Sequence record: PZ171033.1
Length of the DNA: 64,000 nucleotides
Source of the DNA: a phage
Reading direction: 5' to 3' (one strand)
In this document: one piece after another, positions 8-61,444 of the stretch
Position numbering within the stretch: the first letter of the stretch is position 1
How the letters are laid out: every line of letters starts with the position of its first letter
Notes under the pieces: model-generated
Databases searched by the model: none
Seen by the model: only the letters and a program-made list of their open reading frames with translations
What the model was told of the DNA's origin: nothing
Program-made: the position numbers and the translations under genes

Positions 8-1897
8 ATGATTAAAACCTACCTGCTGCCTAATGACCTAAGCATGGAAGACTTCATCTTCATTGAACTTCATTCTGCCCCCGGCAAGAAGAAGACTCCT
101 GCAAGGGAAATTAAGGAGTTCATACAGCAGGAACTGCAACAGGTACTGGATGATGCAGAAACTCAATACATTATCTGTACTGATTCTGATTACTTCAAAA
201 TACTGACTAAAGAAGCTAAAGCAGAGGCTAACCTCGGCTATGTTTGCGATTCAGTATGGGGTAAGCAGAAGGTTATCTATGCACCTAGCTACAGGCAAGT
301 ATTTTATGACCCACCTGTAGTGAAATCCAAGATTGCTCAGGGTATGGATGCATTACTTAACCACATACGTGGACAGTATGCTGAACCAGGTCATGGAATC
401 ATTGAATTTGAAGCCTATCCAGATACACCAGAGAAGATTAAAGCCTGGCTAGACCAGTTGCTTGAGATGAATAAGCCACTGGCTATAGACATCGAAGCAT
501 TCGGTTTAAAGCACTATAACGCCGGTATAGGGACAATTACATTCTGTTGGAGTAAGACACAAGGCATAGCCTTTAATGTGGACTATGAGCCAATTAAGGG
601 GGCTACTGAAGCTCCCTATGGGCGTATTAACAGGAACGATGTTGTTCGTAACCTGTTACGTGAGTTCTTCATTAAGTACACTCAACGGCAGATGTATCAC
701 AACATTAGCTATGACGTGTACATACTTATCTATCAGTTATTCATGGATAACCTGATTGATACGGAAGGCTTGCTGCATGGCATGGAAATCATGCTACGTA
801 ATTGGGACTGTACTAAGTTAATCACCTACCTGGCTACTAACAGTTGTGCTGGTAATCACCTTAGTCTGAAAGAACAGGCTCAGGAATATGCTGGTAACTA
901 TGCTCAGGATGACATTAAAGACATTCGTCTTATTCCTAATGAGCAACTGTTACGCTACAACCTCATTGATGGTTTGTGTACGTGGTACACCTACGAGAAG
1001 CACTGGGATACTCTCATTGCTGATGACCAACTGGATGTTTACAACAACATCTTTAAACCAGCCTGTGAAGACATTATTCAGATGCAGTTAACCGGTATGC
1101 CCATGAATATGGAAACCGTTAACCAAGTAGCTGAGGAGATGGAAACTGACAGGAACCAGGCTCTGAAAACTATTCGTGAGTCTAAGCTCATGAAGAACTT
1201 CACCCTGATGCTTCGTCAGGAATGGGTAGACGATAAGAATGCTAAGCTTAAGAAGAAGCAAGTAACATTGGCTGATTGTGACATCGAGTTTAATCCTAAC
1301 TCCGGTCCACAATTGCAGAAGTTGTTATTTGACTATATTGGCTTACCGGTTCTTGGTCTTACTAAGAGCAAGCAACCTGCTACTGACGGTGACACTATTA
1401 AAGCACTGCGTACACATACGCAGAGTGAAGATGTTAAGGAACTGCTCAATGCACTTATCGACTATAAACTCGTGGATAAGATTATCACTAGTTTTATACC
1501 AGCTTTCAGGAATGCCCAACCAGGGCCGGATGGCTGGCACTACCTATTCGGCAACCTCAATCTGGGAGGCACAGTCTCCGGTAGGCTATCGGCTTCAGAG
1601 CCAAATCTACAAACAATTCCATCCGGTTCTAAATATGCCAAGAAGATTAAGAAATGCTTCGAAGCTCCTCCTGGCTGGATATTTTGCGGTTTGGACTTCG
1701 CCTCGCTGGAAGACAGAATCTCTGCACTAACTACTAAAGACCCTCAGAAGCTTAAGGTGTACATGGGTGTGACTGTTTATACAGTTACTATAGAAGGAGT
1801 TGACCATCATATCCGAGATGATGATACAATCGTTTATGATGGTAAAACTTATACCGGTGAGGAGTTCTATGACGCTTTTACCTGTGGCCTTCTATGA
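8..1897 (+). CDS. DNA polymerase, family A, N-terminal part (3'-5' exonuclease plus polymerase motif A); frame runs into an HNH insertion and stops
   Basis: GGAGGA RBS at 1-6 then ATG at 8; exo motif AIDIEAFGL; motif A LDFASLEDRI; the last ~40 aa after KVYMG look non-polymerase. Confidence 0.85.
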   Translation: MIKTYLLPNDLSMEDFIFIELHSAPGKKKTPAREIKEFIQQELQQVLDDAETQYIICTDSDYFKILTKEAKAEANLGYVCDSVWGKQKVIYAPSYRQVFYDPPVVKSKIAQGMDALLNHIRGQYAEPGHGIIEFEAYPDTPEKIKAWLDQLLEMNKPLAIDIEAFGLKHYNAGIGTITFCWSKTQGIAFNVDYEPIKGATEAPYGRINRNDVVRNLLREFFIKYTQRQMYHNISYDVYILIYQLFMDNLIDTEGLLHGMEIMLRNWDCTKLITYLATNSCAGNHLSLKEQAQEYAGNYAQDDIKDIRLIPNEQLLRYNLIDGLCTWYTYEKHWDTLIADDQLDVYNNIFKPACEDIIQMQLTGMPMNMETVNQVAEEMETDRNQALKTIRESKLMKNFTLMLRQEWVDDKNAKLKKKQVTLADCDIEFNPNSGPQLQKLLFDYIGLPVLGLTKSKQPATDGDTIKALRTHTQSEDVKELLNALIDYKLVDKIITSFIPAFRNAQPGPDGWHYLFGNLNLGGTVSGRLSASEPNLQTIPSGSKYAKKIKKCFEAPPGWIFCGLDFASLEDRISALTTKDPQKLKVYMGVTVYTVTIEGVDHHIRDDDTIVYDGKTYTGEEFYDAFTCGLL

Positions 1898-2414
1898 ACA
1901 ACGGTATAAGATTTCCGATGAAGGTTTCATCTTAAATCTTGCAAACAATCAACCCCTAAAACCGACTCTCAATCCTAACGGATACCTTAAGGTTGGGTTA
2001 GCTAATGGGGATGGTACACATCACCAAGAGCTACTTCATATTCTGGTAGCTAAACACTTCATCCCTAATCCTTATGGCTATGAACAGGTGAACCATAAAG
2101 ATGGTAATAAACTGCATTGTCATAAGGATAATCTGGAATGGTGCTCTGCTACTCAGAATGTTGAACATGCACTTAAAACAAGGCTACGTCCTGGTTACAT
2201 GTCTGCTGACGATAAAGAAAAGTATCTCTTTGAGGTGCTGGCAGGTAAGCAAGTTAAAGACATTGCTTTTGAAATAGGTAGACGTTCTGAAACTTTGCAT
2301 AAGATGCTCAGAACTACTGCTGACCGACTTGGTGTTCGAAATGAGTGGGATGATGTTATGAGGAGAAATAGAAAAGATGTTGCTTTACGACAGCTTGCCA
2401 AAATCAACTCATGA
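1869..2414 (+). CDS. HNH homing endonuclease inserted in the DNA polymerase gene
   Basis: Motifs NGYLKVGL...HQELLH...VNHKDGNKLHCHKDNLEWCSATQN; frame differs from both polymerase segments; start codon uncertain (first in-frame ATG after pol motif A is 1869). Confidence 0.8.
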   Translation: MTLLPVAFYEQRYKISDEGFILNLANNQPLKPTLNPNGYLKVGLANGDGTHHQELLHILVAKHFIPNPYGYEQVNHKDGNKLHCHKDNLEWCSATQNVEHALKTRLRPGYMSADDKEKYLFEVLAGKQVKDIAFEIGRRSETLHKMLRTTADRLGVRNEWDDVMRRNRKDVALRQLAKINS

Positions 2415-3207
2415 CTTCACTGGCAAGAAAATTGACAACGTAGTCAAAGCCGGGAGTTCATCAGGTTATGATGGGCACAGTCTTCGTGCATATGCTTACT
2501 TCGGTGAGCAGATGCCAGACATAGAAGACACGGTAGAATCCATTAACTCCATTCAGCATAAGTACAAATCATTACGTAGTGACTCGAAGGCTCCAACCTT
2601 CTTGCTTACCTATGGTGGTACGTATATGGGCTTAATGAAAAACTGTGGCTTCTCTGAAGAGAAGGCTAAAACTACAGAGAAGCGTTATCACGACCTCTAT
2701 GTAGTTAGTGACAGGTGGGTTCAGGCTAAGCTAGACGAAGCTGCCAAAACTGGTTATGTTACTGCCGCATTCGGTTTGAGAGTGCGTACTCCTTTACTGG
2801 CTCAGGTTTTACGTGGGACATGCAAGACTCCGTATGAAGCAGAAGCAGAAGGCAGAACTGCTGGTAATGCTTTAGGACAAAGCTGGTGTCTACTGAATAA
2901 CCGTGCTGGTTCAGAATTTATGCGTAAAGTCAGAGCCAGTGAGTTCAGGTTAGATATTCGTCCTAGTATTCACATTCATGATGCTCAGTACTTCATGATT
3001 CGTGACAACATGGATACCTTACAGTTTACGAACAAGCACTTGGTTGAAGCCGTTAACTGGCAAGATCATCCTGATATTGCCCATCCAGAAGTTGGTTTGG
3101 GTGGGGAACTATCCTTGTTCTACCCAACGTGGGCTAATGAGATTGAAATTCCAAATCACGCTACCCCAGAAGAAGTTCATCAAATAATTCAAAAGGCATT
3201 CGCATGA
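2377..3207 (+). CDS. DNA polymerase, family A, C-terminal part (motifs B and C)
   Basis: YDGHSLRA (DIH-like), motif B RSDSKAPTFLLTYGG, motif C IHIHDAQYF; ATG 2377 with AGGAG 11 nt upstream, but may instead be a spliced exon beginning near 2466. Confidence 0.8.
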   Translation: MLLYDSLPKSTHDFTGKKIDNVVKAGSSSGYDGHSLRAYAYFGEQMPDIEDTVESINSIQHKYKSLRSDSKAPTFLLTYGGTYMGLMKNCGFSEEKAKTTEKRYHDLYVVSDRWVQAKLDEAAKTGYVTAAFGLRVRTPLLAQVLRGTCKTPYEAEAEGRTAGNALGQSWCLLNNRAGSEFMRKVRASEFRLDIRPSIHIHDAQYFMIRDNMDTLQFTNKHLVEAVNWQDHPDIAHPEVGLGGELSLFYPTWANEIEIPNHATPEEVHQIIQKAFA

Positions 3208-3509
3208 CCAAAAGTACTAAAGAAACTGTAGTCAGAAAATATCATTGGATGGTAGCAGCACAGGTAGTATTCCAACTTCCTAAAGTGGATGATGGTTCCC
3301 TGCTTACCATGAACACAATGCTGCTCACTGATGAACCTTATGTGACCTATAAAGATTTGGCACGTGCCAATCACTCCCTGAAGATTAGTCTGGACCAACG
3401 CTTTGATACCTCGGTTGACCTGAAAGACATCGTTTATCTGTCTCTCAGCAACCTGGGTCTGATGTCTGAACCAGAGTTCCAGGCAAATATGATTCCTAAG
3501 GAGAAATAA
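3204..3509 (+). CDS. hypothetical protein
   Basis: Compact ORF with start overlapping upstream stop, in replication module. Confidence 0.5.
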   Translation: MTKSTKETVVRKYHWMVAAQVVFQLPKVDDGSLLTMNTMLLTDEPYVTYKDLARANHSLKISLDQRFDTSVDLKDIVYLSLSNLGLMSEPEFQANMIPKEK

Positions 3510-3793
3510 TGGCTAAGCTCTCCGGTGGATTGAATAACTGGTATGTAGTACCAGTTAAACACCCTCAACGGAAAGAGCAAGAGCCATATCAAGCAGAATG
3601 TGAGGATATTATCCAAGCACTGGGCATGACCTTCGATGAAGGTTGTGCCTTTAAAGCTTTATGGCGAAATGCTGCTGCCCGTATGGGTAATGGTAAACCT
3701 GGAAACTCTTCGGTGTACGACTCAGAGAAGATTGTGCACTATGCCAATCGCATATTGAAAAAGGCTTATAATGAAGATAACCAACAATCATGA
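3509..3793 (+). CDS. hypothetical protein
   Basis: ORF translationally coupled to neighbours. Confidence 0.5.
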   Translation: MAKLSGGLNNWYVVPVKHPQRKEQEPYQAECEDIIQALGMTFDEGCAFKALWRNAAARMGNGKPGNSSVYDSEKIVHYANRILKKAYNEDNQQS

Positions 3794-4751
3794 TGTCTCA
3801 CTGGCTCTGGCTGTATGGCTATTACATGATGAGTACGATTACGTAGACAATCCTAAGTATCTGTCTGTTACTACATTGCTTAAGCCCATTAAGCAAATCG
3901 TCATGAAGCATCGTGTAGATTTGAGTGACCAGTCAATTGATGTTATGGATTTCGTCTCAACATCAATGGGTACTGGTTTACATGACTCTATCGAGAAAGC
4001 CTGGAAGTTAGGTCATAAGACTGCATTGAAGAAGCTAGGTTATCCTCAGCGTGTAATTGATGCAGTAGTCATTAATCCAACCAAAGCAGACTTTGATACT
4101 AACCCTGACCTTATCCCAATCTACATTGAACAACGTGGAACCAGGGTAGTTAAGGGTTGGACTATCGGTGGTAAGTTCGACATCGTAACAGAAGGTCTAT
4201 TACAGGACTTTAAGTCTACCTCAACCTATTCCTGGGTTGCTGGTTCCCGTGATGATGAACACAAGATGCAAGGCAGCTTGTATCGTTGGATTCACAACGA
4301 CATCATTACTGAGGATGTAATTCGTATTAACTACATCTTCACTGACTTCATGAAGCACATGGCTAATAGCAATCCGAACTATCCTGCTAATCGTATTATG
4401 CATAAGGATATTCCACTGCTATCTGTCGATAAGACTGAACGTTGGGTAGAAGAGAAGATTCACCTCATTGAGAAGTACTGGAATGCACCTGAAGAGGAAA
4501 TTCCTGAGTGTACTGACGAGGAGTTGTGGCGAACAGAGCCACAGTTCAAATACTTCTCTGATGCTTCTAAGGTAGATGTACCTGGAGCCAGAAGTACCAA
4601 AAACTTTGACGATATGGCATCTGCTCGTATCTTCATGGCTGAAAAAGGTGGCAAGGGTGCTATCAAGGTCGTGGAGGGGCAGGTTAAGCGTTGTCTGTAC
4701 TGCCCTGTCGCATCCATTTGCAAACAAAGAGAGAGATATTTTCCATCATGA
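3771..4751 (+). CDS. PD-(D/E)XK nuclease with C-terminal Cys cluster (Cas4/RecB-like exonuclease)
   Basis: GKFDIVTEG...QDFK core motif; C-terminal C...CLYCPVASIC four-Cys cluster. Confidence 0.55.
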   Translation: MKITNNHDVSLALAVWLLHDEYDYVDNPKYLSVTTLLKPIKQIVMKHRVDLSDQSIDVMDFVSTSMGTGLHDSIEKAWKLGHKTALKKLGYPQRVIDAVVINPTKADFDTNPDLIPIYIEQRGTRVVKGWTIGGKFDIVTEGLLQDFKSTSTYSWVAGSRDDEHKMQGSLYRWIHNDIITEDVIRINYIFTDFMKHMANSNPNYPANRIMHKDIPLLSVDKTERWVEEKIHLIEKYWNAPEEEIPECTDEELWRTEPQFKYFSDASKVDVPGARSTKNFDDMASARIFMAEKGGKGAIKVVEGQVKRCLYCPVASICKQRERYFPS

Positions 4752-6901
4752 GTATTGACCTTACCGGAGTAGTGCATCATCCGGCGATTGAAGAAATCGT
4801 AGATGTGCTCTGCAATAAAACCCAGAATAATGACCGGGGATTTTTCCGTGTCGAAGTAGCCTACTTCTTGGCTAAAATGGCATCCTGCATGGGTGCAACC
4901 ATCGTAACTAAAGATCGTGGTGACCTGCCGGTAAACATCTACGCTATAGCGTTGGCTACATCTGGTTTCGGTAAAGGTCACTCAGTAAATATCATTGAAG
5001 ACGGGTTCATGACTGGCTTCCGTAAACGCTTTATGGAAGACACCATGCCCGTCATTGCAAATGATCGTTTATGGAAGATTGCTAACGAACGTGCTGCTCG
5101 TCAAGGTACAGACCAGAATGATGAGTTTGATAAAGTCGAAGCAGAATATAAACGTGCTGGAGCATATCCGTTTACGTTTGACTCCGGTACTCCACCAGCA
5201 GTTAAGCAACTACGGCATAAACTGTTAATGGCTGGATGTGGTTCAATCAACCTTCAGATTGATGAAATTGGTTCAAACCTGTTGGCTAACACAGATGTAT
5301 TAACCCTGTTCCTGGAGCTGTATGACCAGGGTAAGGTTAAGCAGAAACTAACCAAAAATACTGCTGAAAGTGTTCGTGGTGAAGAACTGGATGGTAAAAC
5401 TCCAGCTAACCTGTTGCTGTTTGGTACACCAAGTAAGCTACTAGATGGTGGTCAGACCGAAGATCAGTTCTATGACTTCCTTGATACAGGGTATGCACGT
5501 CGTTGTCTATTTGCCATTGGGCACTTAGACAAACGAGCACATGCAACAATGTCTCCGGAAGAAATCTACCGTAACCTGATTAAGCAGGATAACGTACAGT
5601 CTCTGGGTAAGTGGGCTAACCACTTCCATAGTCTGGCTGACCCAAACCTGTTTGGCTTTAAGATGGTTGTAGAAGATGCTGTGGGTATTGCTCTGATTAC
5701 TTACAAAATTGATTGTGAGAAACAAGCAGAAGCTATGGCTGACCACGAAGAAATTCGTAAAGCTGAAATTTCCCACCGTTACTTCAAAGCACTTAAACTG
5801 GCTGGAGCACTGGCGTTTGTTGACCAGAGTTCATTCATTGAAATGTCCCACCTTAAACAAGCAATCTTGCTTGTAGAGGAATCCGGGGCAGCATTCCAGG
5901 GTATTCTCAATCGTGAGAAAGCCTATGTGAAGCTGGCTAAGTATATCGCTTCTGTAGGTAAAGAAGTGACTCATGCTGACTTGCTAGAGTCATTGCCGTT
6001 CTATAAGAGTGGCAATGCAGCTCGTAATGAGATGATGACCCTTGCTACAGCATGGGGCTACAAACAGCACATCATCATTAAGAAAACCTTCAATGAAGGT
6101 ATTGAGTTCTTCCGTGGTGAAACTCTGAAAGAAACTGACATCAATGAGATGATAGTGGCATATAGTGATAGCTTTGCTTATGACTACATTGGTGAACGTG
6201 TACCGTTCGACCAGTTGCATGTATTAACCCAAGCTCCCGGTATGCACTGGGTAAACCATCACATGAAGAATGGACATCGTTCTGAAGAGAACGTTATTCC
6301 AGGATTTAACATGATTGTTATCGACTGTGATGGTGGAGTACCACTGCATACGTGCCATGAACTGATGAAGGAATATAAGTTCATGACTTATACCACTAAG
6401 CGTCATTCTGATGAACAGAATCGCTTCCGTCTGATTATTCCAATGAACTATGAGTTACACCTCGATACTGAGGAATACAAAGAGTTCATGAATAACGTTA
6501 TGTCCTGGCTACCATTCGAAACGGATGAATCTGCTAACCAACGAGCCAAGAAGTGGATGTCCTGCGAGACTGGTTCCTATCATTACAATCTTGAAGCAAA
6601 TCTGTTGGACGTGCGTGACTTTATTCCTCGTACTAGTAAGAACGAGCAGTTCCAGAACCAGATGAAGGAAGTACAGTCGTTGGATAATCTGGAGCGTTGG
6701 TTCGCTAGTCGTATTGCTACCGGTAATCGTAATAATCAAATGATTAAGTACGCACTGGCATTGGTTGACAGTGGTTGGGATTTTGCCCAAGTACAGCAAG
6801 CCGTCCACTCATTCAATAAGAAACTGGCTAATCCATTGCCGGATGATGAATTGAATGCAACCGTAATGGTCACCGTGGCTAAACGCTTTGCTGGTAAGTA
6901 A
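4748..6901 (+). CDS. putative DNA primase / replication initiation protein
   Basis: 718-aa ORF with AGAGAG RBS; C-terminal region resembles primase C-terminal / D5-N-like domains; position between nuclease and SSB. Confidence 0.45.
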   Translation: MSIDLTGVVHHPAIEEIVDVLCNKTQNNDRGFFRVEVAYFLAKMASCMGATIVTKDRGDLPVNIYAIALATSGFGKGHSVNIIEDGFMTGFRKRFMEDTMPVIANDRLWKIANERAARQGTDQNDEFDKVEAEYKRAGAYPFTFDSGTPPAVKQLRHKLLMAGCGSINLQIDEIGSNLLANTDVLTLFLELYDQGKVKQKLTKNTAESVRGEELDGKTPANLLLFGTPSKLLDGGQTEDQFYDFLDTGYARRCLFAIGHLDKRAHATMSPEEIYRNLIKQDNVQSLGKWANHFHSLADPNLFGFKMVVEDAVGIALITYKIDCEKQAEAMADHEEIRKAEISHRYFKALKLAGALAFVDQSSFIEMSHLKQAILLVEESGAAFQGILNREKAYVKLAKYIASVGKEVTHADLLESLPFYKSGNAARNEMMTLATAWGYKQHIIIKKTFNEGIEFFRGETLKETDINEMIVAYSDSFAYDYIGERVPFDQLHVLTQAPGMHWVNHHMKNGHRSEENVIPGFNMIVIDCDGGVPLHTCHELMKEYKFMTYTTKRHSDEQNRFRLIIPMNYELHLDTEEYKEFMNNVMSWLPFETDESANQRAKKWMSCETGSYHYNLEANLLDVRDFIPRTSKNEQFQNQMKEVQSLDNLERWFASRIATGNRNNQMIKYALALVDSGWDFAQVQQAVHSFNKKLANPLPDDELNATVMVTVAKRFAGK

Positions 6902-8553: not shown

Positions 8554-9107
8554 TGAAAATCCCAATTGTCGGTGCAGACATTAGTCTCCGCAATTGGGGT
8601 TTAGCTCGTGGGATGCTGGACATTGAGTCCGGCGTCTTCGAGCAGGTCGAACTTAAACTGGTTCAAACTGAAGTTGACCACAACAAACAAGTTCGAACCA
8701 ACTCCAAAGATATACAAGCCGCTCACGATTTGTTTCTTGGTTGTGAGGAATGGTTACGGTCTGCTAAAGCAGTGTTCGTAGAAGTACCAGTAGGCTCTCA
8801 GTCTGCTAACGGTATGAAATCCTATGGTGTATGCATAGGATTAATCGGTGCATTTCATGCATTGGGTTGTCCAATCTTTGAAGTATCCCCAATTGAAAAC
8901 AAACTTGCACTGGTCGGTGATAAAACTGCATCCAAAGACACGATGATCCGTGCTGCTCATGCCATCTATCCCGAAGCCAACTGGCTCACGGATAAGAAAG
9001 GCAAACTTCTGAATAAGAATGAGCACTTAGCAGATGCAATCGGTGCAATCCATGCTGGTGTAAATCTCCCAGCTTTCCAGAACCTCATTAAGTTATTAAA
9101 GGCGTAA
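8553..9107 (+). CDS. RuvC-like Holliday junction resolvase
   Basis: N-terminal IVGADIS and C-terminal HLADAIGAIHAG resemble RuvC catalytic motifs; ATG overlaps upstream stop. Confidence 0.5.
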   Translation: MKIPIVGADISLRNWGLARGMLDIESGVFEQVELKLVQTEVDHNKQVRTNSKDIQAAHDLFLGCEEWLRSAKAVFVEVPVGSQSANGMKSYGVCIGLIGAFHALGCPIFEVSPIENKLALVGDKTASKDTMIRAAHAIYPEANWLTDKKGKLLNKNEHLADAIGAIHAGVNLPAFQNLIKLLKA

Positions 9108-9108
9108 T

Positions 9109-9561
9109 ATGCAAATCATTTTGAACCAGTCCGAAGTAGAAGCTGCTGTACAGGCTTATGTTGATGATCAAATCAATCTTGCTGGTGACATTAATATTGT
9201 CATCAATGCAGATGGTACTGCCTCCGTTGGTATCAACGAAGAGGTGAGTCATGAAGATGACACTCCACCCTTGGTAGAGAAGAAAACTCGTCGTTCCCGT
9301 AAAAACCCCCAAGAAGCTAAGCATCGTCCGGTAGAACCGGAGCCAGAAGAAGTAGTTGAAGAGGCAAAGGTAGAAGAAACCCAGACCTCTACTGGTGGTC
9401 CGAACGGGAATTCTACGCCGGAACCTGAAGAAGCAGTAGCTGAACCAGAAGCACAAGAAGAAGTTGTGCAGGAAGAGGATATGAAAGAAGACCGTGAGCT
9501 TCCTCCGGAAGAACGACCGGTAACGAAGCCTTCACTGTTCGCTGGCCTTAAACGTAGTTAA
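9109..9561 (+). CDS. hypothetical acidic, Pro/Glu-rich low-complexity protein
   Basis: ORF with strongly acidic PEPEEVVEE-type repeats. Confidence 0.45.
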   Translation: MQIILNQSEVEAAVQAYVDDQINLAGDINIVINADGTASVGINEEVSHEDDTPPLVEKKTRRSRKNPQEAKHRPVEPEPEEVVEEAKVEETQTSTGGPNGNSTPEPEEAVAEPEAQEEVVQEEDMKEDRELPPEERPVTKPSLFAGLKRS

Positions 9562-10282
9562 TCTGGTAGGTGGCTCAGAAGCTGCTGCTATTTGTGGTAG
9601 TGTTCGTAATTCTGATGCTATTGCTTATCAGGATTCTGGACGTGTCGGCTCCATACATAGCATTTATCATCACTGTACTTATACTTTGGAAACTCAGTGA
9701 TAAAAACGGTGGTGACAAGCCGCCAGAGTAACAACAACAACCGAACCAGTGGACTTTAATACTCTCCGAAGTCCACAGGTTCAATCTAAACTAAGCGGAA
9801 AAGTTAGCTTTTTCTTGGGTGTAGAACCTGTTGAAGGAAACAAAGAATTTCACATTGAATAGTTAATATCGTAAAGGGTTCTGTTAGAATCCTTTGAGAT
9901 AGGAACTCCTATCATAACTATTCTTAACTTAATCTTTGCCGTATGGCACTGACGCTAGGGGTGGCCCCCCATCCGTCAGGTAGACTATTTTAAGAATGGG
10001 TTATCACAGCAAATGTAAAGCAACATTCGGGTTAATCAATGGCCTCTCCCTATAGGGGCCATTTCTGAATCTTAGGCTATATCCCAAAGGTTAGTATCTT
10101 TGGGATAAGGCTTCAGATCTCTTATCAACTAACGCTCATGTTGAGCATTCTACTCACACAAGCCCCTATATGGGCTGGGTTAAATGTCGGATAGCATAGC
10201 TACCTACAGCATCGAGATGTTAGGTCTTACATGTAATATAGGGTATAAAGGGAGGACTCGTCCCCTCCCTCCTATTATAATG

Positions 10283-11732: not shown

Positions 11733-11808
11733 TACCCGGTAGGCTTAGTGGTAAAGCCCCACTAGTAAACCAACTAGGACGCAGGTTCGAATCCTGTCCG
11801 GGTAGCCA
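11733..11808 (+). tRNA. tRNA-like gene with encoded CCA
   Basis: Acceptor TACCCGG/CCGGGTA, U8A9, D-arm GGCT-TAGTGGTAA-AGCC, T-arm GCAGG-TTCGAAT-CCTGT, G then CCA; anticodon arm atypical (6-nt loop by eye). Confidence 0.5.
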
Positions 11809-11813
11809 TTTAT

Positions 11814-11898
11814 GCCCACTTAGCTCAGTGGTAGAGCGCAGGAAAGCTTCGAGAGAACAAGGTGTCTGTGGTCACTGGTTCAAATCCAGTAGTGGGTA
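11814..11898 (+). tRNA. tRNA-like gene, long-arm (class II-like) length
   Basis: Canonical D-arm GCTCAGTGGTAGAGC, T-arm ACTGG-TTCAAAT-CCAGT, acceptor GCCCACT/AGTGGGT; 36-nt anticodon/variable region does not fold canonically by eye. Confidence 0.45.
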
Positions 11899-57850: not shown

Positions 57851-58164
57851 ATGGCAAGCATCGACTCCTTGACTGTATGTAATTCACGTCAAGCTCGTAA
57901 CTTTATTATCCGTGCCCTGAAAGCAGGTAACGTACCGTTCCTGACTTCATCACCTGGCATGGGTAAATCTGCAATCATTCGTTCTATTGCAGAAGAATTT
58001 GGTATGAAGTTAATTGACCACCGTCTATCTACTTCTGCCCCGGAAGACCTGTCTGGCTTACCTTTCCGTAATGGTGACCGTGCAGAGTTTATTCCATTCG
58101 CTGACTTATTCCCCATTGAGGGAGACGAAGTACCAGAAGGCTATAATGGCTGGCTCTTATTCCT
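57851..58164 (+). CDS. MoxR-type AAA+ ATPase, exon 1 (ends inside Walker B)
   Basis: Walker A SSPGMGKSA; ORF stops at 58171 right after GWLLFLN; proposed 5' splice site after T at 58164. Confidence 0.6.
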
Positions 58165-59046
58165 TAACTAACGGGGCTTCATGAGAGCAATCTCATGTCG
58201 AAAGTTACCTAAACAGGGAACCTCTTCTAAACTGGTTGGCTCAAGTGTATACTTGAGTTTTAATCAATTGGAGACAATCCTGTGCTAAATAATGAAATTT
58301 GGAAAGATGTGCCCGGCTTACCGTATGAAGTTTCCAACTTTGGCGTAGTACGCCGAAAGGAAGGAAAGTATAAATACAAAAACAGGACACATATAAAACC
58401 GTATCTTAATAACAAAGGATACTACTGCGTGAACCTGTACATGAATAGTAAAGTGTACAAATACCAAGTTCACCGTCTGGTAGGATTAGCCTTTGTACCA
58501 AACCCTAATAACTATCCTGTTATTAATCATATAGATGGAAACCCTCTTAATAACCACGAGAGTAACCTGGAATGGTGTACCCAGTCTCATAACATGAAAC
58601 ATGCTTGGGATACTGGACTGCAAACAAACAGGCACGCTAATGCTAGTAATAAAAATCGTGGAGGCTCCTCCAAATATGTAGGCGTATCCTGGAGTGAGCA
58701 AAGACAAAGATGGTGTGCCCATATAAGGGTTAACAAGAAATCTATTGGTTTGGGACGTTACAAAACAGAGGAAGAAGCTGCTAAAGCTTACGACTCCTAC
58801 GTAACTAATAACAATCTTACACAGATTGGGTACAGTACCAATTTCATTTAAACGCCAAACGACTATCGAAAACACACAGAAATGTGGAAGTGAGTAGAGT
58901 AGGGTGCAAGCCAATGGCACTCGAAACGGTAACAGCCCTAGCAATAGGGCTTTGATATAGTCTCCTCTGCATGGTGACATGCAGCAGTCAGTATTCACTG
59001 AGTGTACTGACGGCATTAGTAGTTGCGAACTAATGTGAAGATAATG
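58165..59046 (+). mobile_element. probable group I intron (882 nt) carrying an HNH-AP2 homing endonuclease ORF
   Basis: 5' exon ends in U, insertion ends in G; joining 58164 to 59047 restores Walker B LLFLDEFN in frame; 117 + 195 nt non-coding flanks around the endonuclease ORF. Confidence 0.55.
58282..58851 (+). CDS. HNH-AP2 homing endonuclease (intron-encoded)
   Basis: HNH motif NHIDGNPLNNHESNLEWCTQSHN; AP2 domain YVGVSWSEQRQRWCAHIRVNKKSIGLGRYKTEEEAAKAYD. Confidence 0.8.
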   Translation: MLNNEIWKDVPGLPYEVSNFGVVRRKEGKYKYKNRTHIKPYLNNKGYYCVNLYMNSKVYKYQVHRLVGLAFVPNPNNYPVINHIDGNPLNNHESNLEWCTQSHNMKHAWDTGLQTNRHANASNKNRGGSSKYVGVSWSEQRQRWCAHIRVNKKSIGLGRYKTEEEAAKAYDSYVTNNNLTQIGYSTNFI

Positions 59047-59785
59047 CGATGAGTTCAACTCAGCTAAGAAAGAAGTAGTAGCTGCTGCATACAAACTGAT
59101 TCTCGACCGTATGACTGGACAGAAAAAACTTCACCCTAATGTGATGATTATCTGTGCCGGTAACAAAGCTACTGACCGTGCCATCGTTAACCCACTGGGT
59201 ACTGCAATGCAGTCTCGTGTTGTCCACTTTGAAATGGAACTTAACTTCGACATCTTTGTTGAAGACGTTATGATTCCGTACAAGTGGGATGAACGTCTGG
59301 TTGCATTCTTACATGCTAACCCAGGCTATCTGCATGACTTTGACCCAGCCCATAAGAACAAAACGTTCTGTTGCCCTCGTACTTGGGACTTTGTTAACAA
59401 AGACCTCAAGAACCTCCCGGAAGGTGCTCTGCCTGACGAGGATTCCCTATACTACAGTGGTTTTGTTACACCAGGTAAGGCCGTAGAGTTTGTTCAGTTC
59501 ACTCAGGTATACAATCGTATGATTACGATTGAGAAGGTAGTCAAAGACCCCATGGGCTGTGCACTGCCGGAAGATACCAACCTATGCTGGGCTACCGTTA
59601 ACCATCTGGCTAACAAAACTACTGAAGAGAACTTCGCTGATGTTCTCCAGTACATTGAACGCTTTAAAACGTTCACCCATAAGATTCTGTACTTCCGTAC
59701 AGTGGGCAAAGCATTACCAGAAATTCAGGCTACCCCTGAATGGCGTAAGGCTGCTGCCAATATCTCTCGTTACATTCACGGATAA
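59047..59785 (+). CDS. MoxR-type AAA+ ATPase, exon 2
   Basis: In-frame DEFNSA... with no start codon upstream of track ATG 59111; sensor-1-like VMIICAGN. Confidence 0.6.
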
Positions 59786-59792
59786 TCACATC

Positions 59793-60269
59793 ATGAACTG
59801 GAATGACTTGTTCACATACAGCAATGGTGCTCTTTACTGGAAAGTATCTAGAGGCCGTGCACTAGCTGGGGCTGTTGCCGGGAGTGTGGACAATAGTGGA
59901 TACGTTAGAGTCAAATGCTTCAAAAAGATGTACTTGGTTCACCGTATAATCTATGAAATGGAAATCGGCCCAATCCCTGATGGCTACCAGGTAGACCATA
60001 TTGACCATAACAGGTTAAATAACTACCCAAGTAACTTCCGTTTAGTCACCAATTTAGATAACTGCCGTAACCAAAAGAAAAGGATAACCAATTCTTCTGG
60101 TATTACAGGAGTCTATTGGCACTCCAGAGATGAAATATGGGCTGCTTCCATAAATGATAATGGTAAGCAAATTTATTTAGGAAAATTCCCTAGTAAAGAA
60201 GAAGCTGCTAAAGCCAGGAAAGAGGCTGAAAAGCTTATTGGTTACCATAAAAATCATGGAGCACCTTAA
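59793..60269 (+). CDS. HNH-AP2 homing endonuclease (free-standing)
   Basis: HNH motif YQVDHIDHNRLNNYPSNFRLVTNLDN; AP2 ITGVYWHSRDEIWAASINDNGKQIYLGKFPSKEEAAKA; ATG 59793 chosen inside track ORF 59559. Confidence 0.75.
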   Translation: MNWNDLFTYSNGALYWKVSRGRALAGAVAGSVDNSGYVRVKCFKKMYLVHRIIYEMEIGPIPDGYQVDHIDHNRLNNYPSNFRLVTNLDNCRNQKKRITNSSGITGVYWHSRDEIWAASINDNGKQIYLGKFPSKEEAAKARKEAEKLIGYHKNHGAP

Positions 60270-61444
60270 TGAATAACATACCTACACATACCCTTACTGA
60301 TGAACAGTTAATGAGGGAGTACGACAGGATCCAAGCTAACGCCTTTCTAGGCAAGTCTGCTGCCTTTTTTGGTTCATTGCTGTGTAGTCTTAAGTTCTCA
60401 TGGAAACGCGAGGACTGTCCCACTGCATGTACAGATGGGATAGAACTCCATTTCAATCCAGACTTCTTTATCTGGATGTGTCCTGATGCAAGAGAAACAG
60501 TACTAATGCACGAACTCTGGCATGTGGCATATCTGCATGGAATCCGTTGTGGAAGCCGTGACCCAGAAATCTGGAACCAGGCATGTGACCACTTCATTAA
60601 CCTTCAGTTAGAGGAAGATGGTTACAAGTTCACTGGTATCGACAAAGGCATTTGCAAAGACCCTCAATATAAAGGATGGGTCGAAGAAGACATCTACGAT
60701 GACCTGATGAAGAACCCTCAGAAAAGGCAGAAGCCGTCAGGGGGTGCTGGAGCAGGTCTTGCTGGCGACATGAAAGCTCCCTCTTCGGGGCAGTCCCAGG
60801 GTGCTGTTGTCAACAACGTAGTACGTGCAATGCAAAGTCAGAAGATGGCTGGTGGAACAATGCCCGGTAAGGGTGCTGGTCGTATGGAAGAGGTTATTAC
60901 CCAATTCCTTAAGCCAGTGGTTCCATGGCAGGAAGTCCTCATGAACTTCTTTACCGACATTGATGACACTCACTATACGTGGGCCAGACCTAACCGTCGT
61001 TACACTGACATCTATCTACCTTCACTGGAAGATGATGAAGGGCGTCTACGACACTTAGCTTACTTTGAGGATGTATCAGGTTCTATTAGTAGTGCTGACT
61101 CTCTGCGTTTTAACTCAGAGGTTGCCTACGTTAAGAGCCAGTTCAACCCTAAAAAGATGTCCTTAATTACCTTCGACGATATTATCCAAGAAGAGATGGA
61201 CATCACTGAAGAAGATACTTTTGAAGAGATTAGGATTACAGGTCGTGGTGGTACAAACCTTGAACCAGTACGAGAATGGATTATTAAGAATAAGCCAACC
61301 GCTGCAATCATATTCTCCGATATGTATGTTCGCCCAATGGAAGAATTGCCATTTGATATACCTATCATTTGGTGTGTTCTGAATAATCCTAATGCTACCG
61401 TACCTTTTGGGGAGGTAGTTCATATCCCTAAAGGAATGAAATAA
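60269..61444 (+). CDS. VWA-domain protein with HExxH metallopeptidase-like motif (MoxR partner)
   Basis: LMHELWHVAYLH; C-terminal VWA-like region; adjacent to AAA+ ATPase. Confidence 0.55.
   Translation: MNNIPTHTLTDEQLMREYDRIQANAFLGKSAAFFGSLLCSLKFSWKREDCPTACTDGIELHFNPDFFIWMCPDARETVLMHELWHVAYLHGIRCGSRDPEIWNQACDHFINLQLEEDGYKFTGIDKGICKDPQYKGWVEEDIYDDLMKNPQKRQKPSGGAGAGLAGDMKAPSSGQSQGAVVNNVVRAMQSQKMAGGTMPGKGAGRMEEVITQFLKPVVPWQEVLMNFFTDIDDTHYTWARPNRRYTDIYLPSLEDDEGRLRHLAYFEDVSGSISSADSLRFNSEVAYVKSQFNPKKMSLITFDDIIQEEMDITEEDTFEEIRITGRGGTNLEPVREWIIKNKPTAAIIFSDMYVRPMEELPFDIPIIWCVLNNPNATVPFGEVVHIPKGMK

Follow-up and report, generated by a model that had tools for sequence, protein, structure and literature searches.

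An ATPase gene interrupted within its Walker B codons

Does an AAA+ ATPase gene that is broken inside its Walker B motif still encode one protein, and what is the DNA that breaks it? The question is raised by positions 57851..59785 of a 64,000-nt stretch of phage DNA (sequence record PZ171033.1; the whole stretch is called the window below), where an essential-looking gene of the N4 gp24 type contains an insertion of 882 nt, at 58165..59046, with an open reading frame (ORF) for an HNH-AP2 endonuclease. We consider it highly probable that this insertion is a mobile group I intron of subgroup IA2, similar to that of the T4 td gene and located within the Walker B codons. The argument is drawn from sequence: the insertion is exact, its borders follow the splice rule, it is homologous to a proven intron, its structure is supported by covariation and its endonuclease gene is intact and under selection. 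All features of the window described below are on the + strand.

Megablast and tblastn searches placed the window in Gamaleyavirus (G7C/N4-like, Schitoviridae), with best GenBank phage matches of ~93% DNA identity; an initial annotation of the sequence had rightly taken the phage for N4-like. The ATPase gene begins with an ORF of 106 aa (57851..58171) that contains Walker A, SSPGMGKS, and has the C-terminal end ...GWLLFLN before its stop codon. The frame of the second part is open upstream to 59045, with a TAA at 59042-44, and reads C-DEFNSAKK...; it contains no ATG, GTG or TTG between 59045 and 59111, and no Shine-Dalgarno (SD) sequence was found ahead of the ATG at 59111, which lies 21 codons past the junction. 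ORF inspection agrees here with the initial annotation, in which the first frame stops at 58171 just after GWLLFLN and the DEFNSA frame lacks a start codon before 59111. When T58164 is joined in silico to C59047, a 1053-nt ORF of 350 aa with LLFLDEFN is obtained. Exon 1 (57851..58164) then holds codons 1-104 plus 2 nt, ends with U58164 and corresponds to nt 1-314 of the PhAPEC5 gene. The first base of exon 2 (59047..59785), a C, completes Leu codon 105 and is followed by DEFNSA..., with the stop codon at 59783-85. Walker A and Walker B thus belong to one AAA+ module, GMGKS being in exon 1 and LLFLDE being rebuilt only by splicing.

Uninterrupted alleles are common in the genus. The spliced product (residues 1-350) matched ~50 Gamaleyavirus records in tblastn as a single ungapped 1050-nt piece with 95-97% identity, and the phages with an uninterrupted gene include PhAPEC5, PhAPEC7, G7C, ECBP1, IME11 and Bp4. 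In PhAPEC5 the gene is annotated 'ATPase, similar to N4 gp24', and the next genes encode a VWA-like protein (N4 gp25) and dCTP deaminase (gp26). Pairwise alignment with the PhAPEC5 gene gave one clean insertion of exactly 882 nt. The comparison with intron-less N4-like homologues that had been suggested as a check therefore came out in favour of the initial annotation, as did the length that it had given for the insertion. Both exons are open and under purifying selection (dN 0.014-0.029 versus dS 0.37-0.43 among the window, U1G and NAN33P5).

The spliced ATPase scored 28.7 bits with Pfam AAA (cut-off 21.2); AAA_5 remained at 18.1 bits, under its cut-off of 22, and AAA_3 gave no match. NCBIfam gave no match for the ATPase or for the endonuclease. 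The best PDB match by sequence was the AAA domain of midasin (E = 2.6e-4). The neighbouring gene 60269..61444 carries DUF2201_N and DUF2201 (VWA-like; E = 2e-55 and 1e-34). This weak similarity suggests an AAA+ protein with a VWA-like neighbour, related to the midasin/AAA_5 clade. Of the earlier designation as a MoxR-type AAA+ ATPase, the AAA+ assignment stands, and the MoxR label is only weakly supported.

Borders of the insertion

At the insertion site PhAPEC5 reads TTCCTT|GATGAG and the window reads TTCCT|TAACTAACGGGG...GATAATG|CGATGAG. A 5′ exon ending in U and an intron ending in G are obtained together at a sole placement, 58164|58165...59046|59047. The RNA borders are then ...UUCCU|UAAC...AAUG|CGAUG: the intron begins with UAACUAAC and ends with ...GAUAAUG, ωG being G59046, and its removal rebuilds the Walker B motif LLFLDEF. 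Splicing yields a Leu codon CTC where the intron-less allele has CTT, also Leu, so that the junction deduced from intron-less alleles is the same but for one synonymous base. The predicted ligated product reads ...UUCCU-CGAUGAG..., that is ...UUCCUCGAUGAG..., or ...CTTATTCCT-CGATGAGTTC... The join of T58164 to C59047, proposed earlier on the group I rule and the reconstruction of LLFLDEFN, is thus borne out by the 350-aa ORF and by the PhAPEC5-type alleles. A junction at 58165|59048, favoured by the raw pairwise alignment, was ruled out, as the intron would then end in C. An intein or another in-frame insertion was likewise ruled out by the in-frame stop codon at 58169-71 and by the non-coding RNA within the 882 nt.

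Related introns at three sites of the gene

The same intron is present at the same position (site B, nt 314 of the gene) in U1G and NAN33P5, and site B is occupied in 3 of 59 matching records. Two other sites are used within the genus. The 868-nt insertion of PW8 and pSb-1, GAAGACCT|TAACTAATAGGGC...ACATAACG|TAGTGG (1852..2719 of both L002, PW8, and L003, pSb-1), lies at site A (after nt 200) and has a 182-aa HNH-AP2 ORF whose ATG start is inside P4. At site C (after nt 648), NAN33P5 carries an insertion of 865 nt, CCTCGT|AAACACAC...ATATCACG|ACTTGG (L005, 3086..3950), with an ORF of 187 aa (3209..3772) of the NUMOD4/HNH type. NAN33P5 therefore has two introns, B and C, in one ATPase gene. The U...G rule is obeyed at all sites, each of the three intron types ends in G, and each of the six genomes examined regains a 350-aa ORF once its introns are removed.

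Exon sequences next to the insertions differ between intron-plus and intron-minus alleles. Just 3′ of site B the difference is synonymous (CT|C GAT versus CT|T GAT), as it is at site A (T AGT GGT TTG versus G TCT GGT CTA), where the 3′ exon is heavily recoded by synonymous changes (TAGTGGTTTG versus GTCTGGTCTA). Among the three hosts of the site-B intron, identity is 94-100% for the intron and 90-92% for the exons. The 3′ half of the ribozyme is 98-100% identical, and the 312 nt of RNA that flank the endonuclease ORF are conserved at 97-100%, above the exons. The intron is more conserved than its exons, as expected of an element that has spread recently.

Predicted ribozyme structure and covariation

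Blastn with the intron from which the ORF had been removed matched 595 phage records. Among them are td introns from phages T4, T6 and TuIa (96.9% over 32 nt, E = 5e-5) and from Dickeya phage JA29 (78% over 141 nt, E = 2e-23); further introns come from phages of Vibrio, Pseudomonas, Campylobacter and Bacillus. The blocks common to the window and T4 td are CUAAAC-GGGAACCUCU, GACAAUCC-GUGCUAAAU, AACGACUAUC, CUCGAAAC, GAUAUAGUCU, CUGCAUGGUGACAUGCAGC and the ...AUAAUG end, and the alignment contains the conserved P/Q/R/S-type blocks. P4, J4/6, J6/7, P7, J8/7 and P9 are near-identical in sequence in the two introns, with P7, J8/7 and P9 identical. They further share the order of helices including P7.1 and P7.2, GNRA loops L2 and L9, and an ORF looped out from P6.

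All helices from P1 to P9.2 could be drawn. In P1 (58161..58176) the guide GGGG (58173-76) base-pairs with UCCU of the exon (58161-64), U58164 being in a U.G wobble that is retained in 8/8 related introns, while the remaining P1 pairs covary with the exon. The P1 loop, L1, UAACUAAC (58165-72), contains two stop codons, one at 58165-67 and a second, UAA, at 58169-71 in frame with the exon. A stop codon just inside the intron, which halts ribosomes at the intron border, is a known trait of phage group I introns (PMC3984707). Nucleotides 8-9 of L1 are complementary to positions +1 and +2 of the 3′ exon, as CG/CG in intron B and UA/UA in intron A. This small covariation between A and B is suggestive of a P10 pairing; in the site-C intron a putative P10 has about 1 bp.

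P2 (58180..58197, CAUGAGA-GCAA-UCUCAUG) is a hairpin with a GNRA loop in which 7/7 pairs show compensatory changes. P3 joins 58204..58209 to 58928-58933 (GUUACC/GGUAAC) across 720 nt; it was found both by RNAalifold and in the single-sequence fold, with compensatory changes at 5/6 pairs. In the P4-P5 domain (58213..58283), P4 is formed by ACAGGG (58213-18) and UCCUGU (58278-83) and P5 by UCUUC (58223-27) and GGAGA (58270-74), the latter extended by a P5a/b hairpin. P6 (span 58291..58848) pairs AAUGAAAUU (58291-99) with AAUUUCAUU (58840-48), with 9/9 pairs compensatory across introns and two more G-C pairs past a bulged U; the body of the ORF, 58300-58839, is looped out. The catalytic core (58861..58962) is closed by P7, GACUAU (58861-66) with AUAGUC (58957-62), and includes P7.1 (58875-86) and P7.2 (58904-20), both with compensatory changes, and P8 (58934-51, AGCCCUA-GCAA-UAGGGCU). 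P9 (58967-84, CUGCAUG-GUGA-CAUGCAG) is followed by P9.1 (58987-59011), P9.2 (59015-34) and the 3′ tail GUGAAGAUAAUG, which ends with ωG. P3 to P9 can be placed in canonical order, including the P3/P7 pseudoknot, and P3, P4, P5, P8 and P9 were also predicted without fitting by hand. The td-like core motif is unique within the window, where no second such core was found.

The initial annotation had judged the 117 and 195 nt that flank the ORF sufficient for a ribozyme core. The core is indeed present; it is not confined to these flanks, as the P4 3′ strand, J4/6 and both strands of P6 are inside the first and last codons of the ORF.

For folding, ORF loops were removed and P6 was closed with GAAA. 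The ORF-less RNA of the window folded at -109.6 kcal/mol (z = -4.4) with P2, the long-range P3, P4, P5/P5a/b, P6, P8, P9, P9.1 and P9.2. Eight introns, from only five independent lineages, were then compared: T4 td, JA29 td, three introns of type B, two of A and one of C. On their unbiased MAFFT alignment, RNAalifold recovered P1-P5, P7.1, P7.2, P8 and P9 with 30 double-compensatory pairs. A structural alignment was also built helix by helix and was kept by MAFFT column for column; the 75 pairs counted on it include P9.1 and the P3/P7 pseudoknot. In it 99.3% of cells are in standard pairs, 52/75 pairs are changed on both sides and the covariation score is 0.653, versus 0.21 in shuffles (reached by 0/500). 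In a control where the 3′ partners were slid by 1-3 columns, 34-42% of cells were paired and 7-12 pairs showed double changes.

Individual helices illustrate these changes. P3 is GUUACC/GGUAAC in B, GCUAUC/GAUAGC in A, GCUGCC/GGUAGC in C, UCUAUC/GAUAGA in T4 td and CUCCAU/GUGGAG in JA29 td; P4 is ACAGGG/UCCUGU in B, AUGGGG/UCCCAU in A and AACGGG/UCCGUU in C. The sequences of P2, P6, P8 and P9.2 are almost wholly divergent between introns, and pairing is always kept. The support for P7 comes only from its sequence identity with T4 td. As a separate observation, RNAalifold proposed a pairing of ACGACUAUC (the P7 5′ strand, ~58859-58868) with the invariant GAGUAGAGU (~58891-58900) upstream of P7.2, at MAFFT columns 178-187 with 210-219; covariation was found neither for this pairing nor for P7. 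It could be a mutually exclusive alternative, or an artefact of folding that is blind to pseudoknots.

T4 td belongs to IA2. Homology to td and the occurrence of P7.1 and P7.2 indicate the same subgroup for the predicted structure of the window intron. P7.1 and P7.2 serve as features for subgroup classification (PMC3984707).

The structure bears directly on another reading of the locus, in which a free-standing HNH cassette has split the ATPase gene and the two halves, never spliced, assemble as separate polypeptides. A precedent exists in nrdA of Aeromonas phage Aeh1, split by mobE (Friedrich et al. 2007, as cited in a passage of PMC5418858). GenBank/RefSeq entries give two 'ATPase' CDSs plus an HNH CDS in U1G, PW8 and pSb-1, PHROG families exist that match fragments only (phrog_21479, phrog_16335), and the genus is rich in free-standing HNH genes such as 59793..60269. 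Against this, the gene is broken within the Walker B strand (LLFL|DEF), the second half has neither a start codon until 59111 nor an SD sequence, and insertion of a cassette leaves unexplained the 312 nt of conserved flanking RNA that form a covarying td-like ribozyme. We regard such a gene in pieces as very improbable. The group I intron of the initial annotation is upheld by intron-less alleles, by homology to T4 td and by an IA2 structure with compensatory changes.

The probable intron-encoded endonuclease

The ORF in the intron (58282..58851, 189 aa) has a GTG start at 58282-84 and a TAA stop at 58849-51, leaving 117 nt of intron on its 5′ side and 195 nt on its 3′ side. Pfam matches were obtained above cut-off for NUMOD4 (41.1 bits, cut-off 23.4, 2e-10), HNH_3 (34.5 bits, cut-off 24.8, 1.6e-8) and AP2 (4.6e-10), which confirms the HNH-AP2 endonuclease ORF and its flanks as first described. 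In the PDB the ORF is closest to I-HmuI (1U3E, E = 5.9e-12), with which the motif ...NHIDGNPLNNHESNLEWCTQSHN aligns; the C-terminus matches plant AP2/ERF domains in the PDB, and the ORF falls in HNH endonuclease families of PHROGs. Among the window, U1G and NAN33P5, dN/dS is 0.05-0.06. These data support the ORF as a probable I-HmuI-like HNH enzyme kept by purifying selection. Pairwise identity among the endonucleases of the A, B and C introns is 37-41%.

Coding sequence and ribozyme are interlocked. The ORF sits in the P6 loop with its codons 4-6 (AAUGAAAUU) paired to its last three codons (AAUUUCAUU), and its stop codon TAA is the first bases of J6/7. The P5 3′ strand is at the same time the ribosome-binding site (RBS) of the endonuclease, GGAG at 58270-73, and the P4 3′ strand overlaps the GTG start. 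Intron A has ATG where the window has GTG, and the P4 partner covaries. With the RBS in P5 and the start in P4, the ribozyme should be unable to fold while the endonuclease is translated, and vice versa. ORFs that reach into the intron core, with a conflict between translation and folding, are a known arrangement (PMC3984707).

A free-standing gene with HNH_3 and AP2 domains (59793..60269, 158 aa) lies between the ATPase stop codon and the VWA-like gene 60269..61444. Its product and the intron-encoded enzyme share 41% identity over 109 aa. PhAPEC5 is without this gene, and its ATPase and VWA-like genes are 8 nt apart. By these comparisons 59793..60269 is probably a second, intron-less mobile endonuclease that adjoins the intron.

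Mobility and intron sites

A scan of IMG/VR with a P1-P2 pattern of the A/B type recovered only pSb-1, which indicates that the element is rare. This result, which shows that the intron type is not widespread in that collection, could be taken to favour a reading where the intron splices and is vertically inherited and where its ORF is not a homing nuclease for the site, being inactive or having a DNA-binding, maturase-like or regulatory role. In the same sense, cleavage is a prediction, AP2 is a DNA-binding module able to serve other roles, and the RBS and start are sequestered in P5 and P4. The low dN/dS, which shows that the protein is maintained, argues in the opposite direction, as do the alignment of the HNH motif with I-HmuI, the conservation of the intron above its host exons across three phages and a sporadic distribution (2 of ~50 database phages) that fits recent lateral spread. 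We therefore hold a non-homing role to be unlikely and retain a mobile intron.

The occupation of three sites leads to a more tentative proposal. The gp24-type ATPase gene might be an intron hotspot, in which a td-like IA2 lineage has radiated at three conserved sites; A and B might come from one ancestor that moved within the gene, with re-tuning of the guide and P10 nucleotides (L1 CG versus UA, in keeping with exon +1 and +2) and with the HNH-AP2 gene swapped or diverged. The identities between segments of introns A and B form a mosaic, 27-89%, and a very recent transposition from A to B is not supported given this mosaic. We consider the hotspot doubtful. If true, it would be a natural record of intron retargeting within one gene, by reverse splicing or by drift of endonuclease specificity.

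Rfam searches and points against a functional intron

Folding for group I elements P1-P9 and comparison with Rfam had been proposed as a check on the initial annotation. The structural part of it came out in favour, the helices being drawn and covarying apart from the invariant P7; the gathering score of the Rfam group I model RF00028 was missed, as it is by T4 td. With cmscan of the whole window at gathering threshold no intron was found, and the only matches were two tRNAs. These two adjacent genes, 11733..11805 and 11814..11898, are the sole Rfam matches of gathering level in the window. The 3′ part of the window intron alone gave a partial match to RF00028 (58840-58984, 18.1 bits, E = 0.012), for a gathering score of 50. 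The T4 td intron (L006, 564..1579, 1016 nt), used as positive control, reached 36.9 bits, and its 5′ half was misaligned into the ORF by the model. The sister introns scored 35.6 bits (NAN33P5 site C), 25.6 bits (PW8 site A) and 19 bits (NAN33P5 site B). Because the proven T4 td intron is also under threshold, silence of Rfam is uninformative for phage introns that bear an ORF, and the miss was set aside as evidence against the intron.

Several observations weigh against a functional mobile intron. P1 has just 4 bp, two of which are G.U, and the putative P10 is only 2 bp long. The cmscan of the 3-kb region against Rfam gave no match to RF00028 at E<=1. The pair counts of the structural alignment are inflated, since this alignment was fitted by hand to the model, and P7 (GACUAU/AUAGUC) is invariant in 8/8 introns, with no covariation of its own. 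Overlap of the endonuclease start with P4 could impair translation or folding. A sigma-70 scan found no promoter for the endonuclease inside the intron; N4-like middle genes use phage RNA polymerases, so this null result says little. Lastly, splicing itself, the activity and specificity of the endonuclease, and homing are inferred from the sequence.

Some of these points would also suit a decayed element, that is a former group I intron that no longer splices, the ATPase being then a pseudogene or dispensable. Splicing is a prediction, P1 is weak, and the Rfam scores at site B (19 and 18.1 bits) are below those of T4 td and of the site-C intron. Decay is nevertheless difficult to reconcile with core strands that are all intact, with P7, J8/7 and P9 identical to T4 td, with helices that are each 100% paired in the window sequence, and with open exons under the purifying selection documented above. 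Moreover, the same intact intron is present in three viable isolates. We give very little credit to this possibility, and a spliced, mobile intron remains by far the preferred reading.

Proposed pathway of splicing and homing

On this basis the following pathway can be proposed. The ATPase gene would be transcribed as one pre-mRNA. A ribosome on exon 1 would halt at UAA 58169-71, two codons into the intron, and free the RNA to fold; the guide GGGG (58173-76) and exon UCCU would form P1 with the U.G wobble at U58164, and the P3-P9 core would form with its P3/P7 pseudoknot. Free guanosine would attack after U58164, G59046 would enter the G-site, and the exons would be ligated to ...UUCCU-CGAUGAG..., giving an mRNA for an intact 350-aa ATPase (LLFLDEF). 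As the SD sequence and the GTG are buried in P5 and P4, translation of the endonuclease would compete with folding of the ribozyme. In a mixed infection, the endonuclease might nick or cut an intron-less allele near the insertion site (PhAPEC5-type target, around CTCCTGTTCCTTGATGAGTTC in PhAPEC5 8788-9840), and repair from the intron-bearing copy would spread the intron (homing).

Relation to known phage introns

A td-like IA2 intron with an I-HmuI-like HNH enzyme would be a classical phage mobile element, and group I introns have already been reported in N4-like phages. The closest parallel to the ribozyme is T4 td, from which the window intron differs in several respects. The host gene is an AAA+ ATPase here and td there; the endonuclease is HNH-AP2 here and the GIY-YIG enzyme I-TevI there. 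The window intron has an extra P5a/b extension, and its ORF start enters P4/P5, whereas I-TevI is wholly within the loop. The host here is a podovirus with its own RNA polymerases.

With the DNA-polymerase intron of Bacillus phage SPO1, the likeness concerns the endonuclease. The window enzyme belongs to the same family as I-HmuI, with which its N-terminal DNA-binding region and HNH align at the E-value given above, and in both phages a group I intron is set in a conserved gene associated with replication; the C-terminal DNA-binding module is here an AP2 domain. I-HmuI is a nicking enzyme; the window enzyme may nick or make double-strand cuts.

N4-like Vibrio phage vB_VspP_pVa5 has a group I intron in td, reported with E = 1e-18 in Rfam (PMC5746245). 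It too has an HNH endonuclease in an N4-like podovirus and was recognised by the U...G rule and by intron-less comparison, although in another gene (td) and another genus, and it is significant in Rfam, unlike the window intron. Genes with several introns are known in Staphylococcus phage Twort (orf142 and nrdE, as cited in passages of PMC5418858 and PMC5746245), where several group I introns likewise occupy different conserved sites of one phage gene. The three ATPase introns are spread over different isolates, unlike those of Twort, each with its own HNH-AP2 gene.

Salmonella phage PVP-SE1 (L008, 578..3521) has a related intron core and an I-HmuI-like HNH ORF in its helicase-primase gene, for which the depositors joined the CDS. 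Its match as an 'AAA family ATPase' was ruled out as a homologue of the ATPase, as it is this helicase-primase gene with an annotated intron. The case shows one intron family in circulation among enterobacterial phages that are unrelated to each other.

Annotation of the locus and its significance

In the literature, including the U1G and UE-phage papers, we found no description of an intron in a gp24-type ATPase gene. GenBank/RefSeq give the ATPase as two fragments, and the sole hint is a subsystem note, 'Phage intron', on U1G gp27. The fragments have also entered protein family collections: phrog_21479 (a 68-position profile of 'unknown function') matches ATPase residues 1-67 and phrog_16335 matches residues 1-187, and at least these two families look as though exon fragments of ATPase genes split by introns had been used to make them. 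In the neighbouring VWA-like gene, two U1G CDSs and one pSb-1 CDS (L001, U1G, 3501..4675; L003, pSb-1, 3622..4753) are called 'HNH endonuclease' in RefSeq and are pieces of the DUF2201 metallopeptidase/VWA-like protein. The C-terminal DUF2201 piece of pSb-1 is labelled 'hypothetical protein', the halves being parted at a G-rich run (...KPSG|...). The break in U1G and pSb-1 reflects a frameshift or else an error of sequencing. The product name is incorrect, and in the window the DUF2201 VWA-like gene is intact at 391 aa.

In the window, U1G, NAN33P5, PW8 and pSb-1, a single joined CDS of 350 aa should take the place of two 'ATPase' fragments. Screens based on Rfam would undercount phage introns that bear an ORF, T4 td included, which remain under the gathering score of RF00028. 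The N4 gp24-type AAA+ ATPase gene, split exactly in Walker B, would be a new host gene for phage group I introns. This target, the occupation of a single gene at three sites within one genus and the failure of Rfam thresholds on such introns add moderate interest. E. coli N4-like podoviruses would exchange td-like introns with T-even and other phages. Its three sites, its three related HNH-AP2 enzymes and a set of >90% identical isolates with or without introns may make the genus a compact natural system for the choice of homing sites and for the conflict between translation and ribozyme folding.

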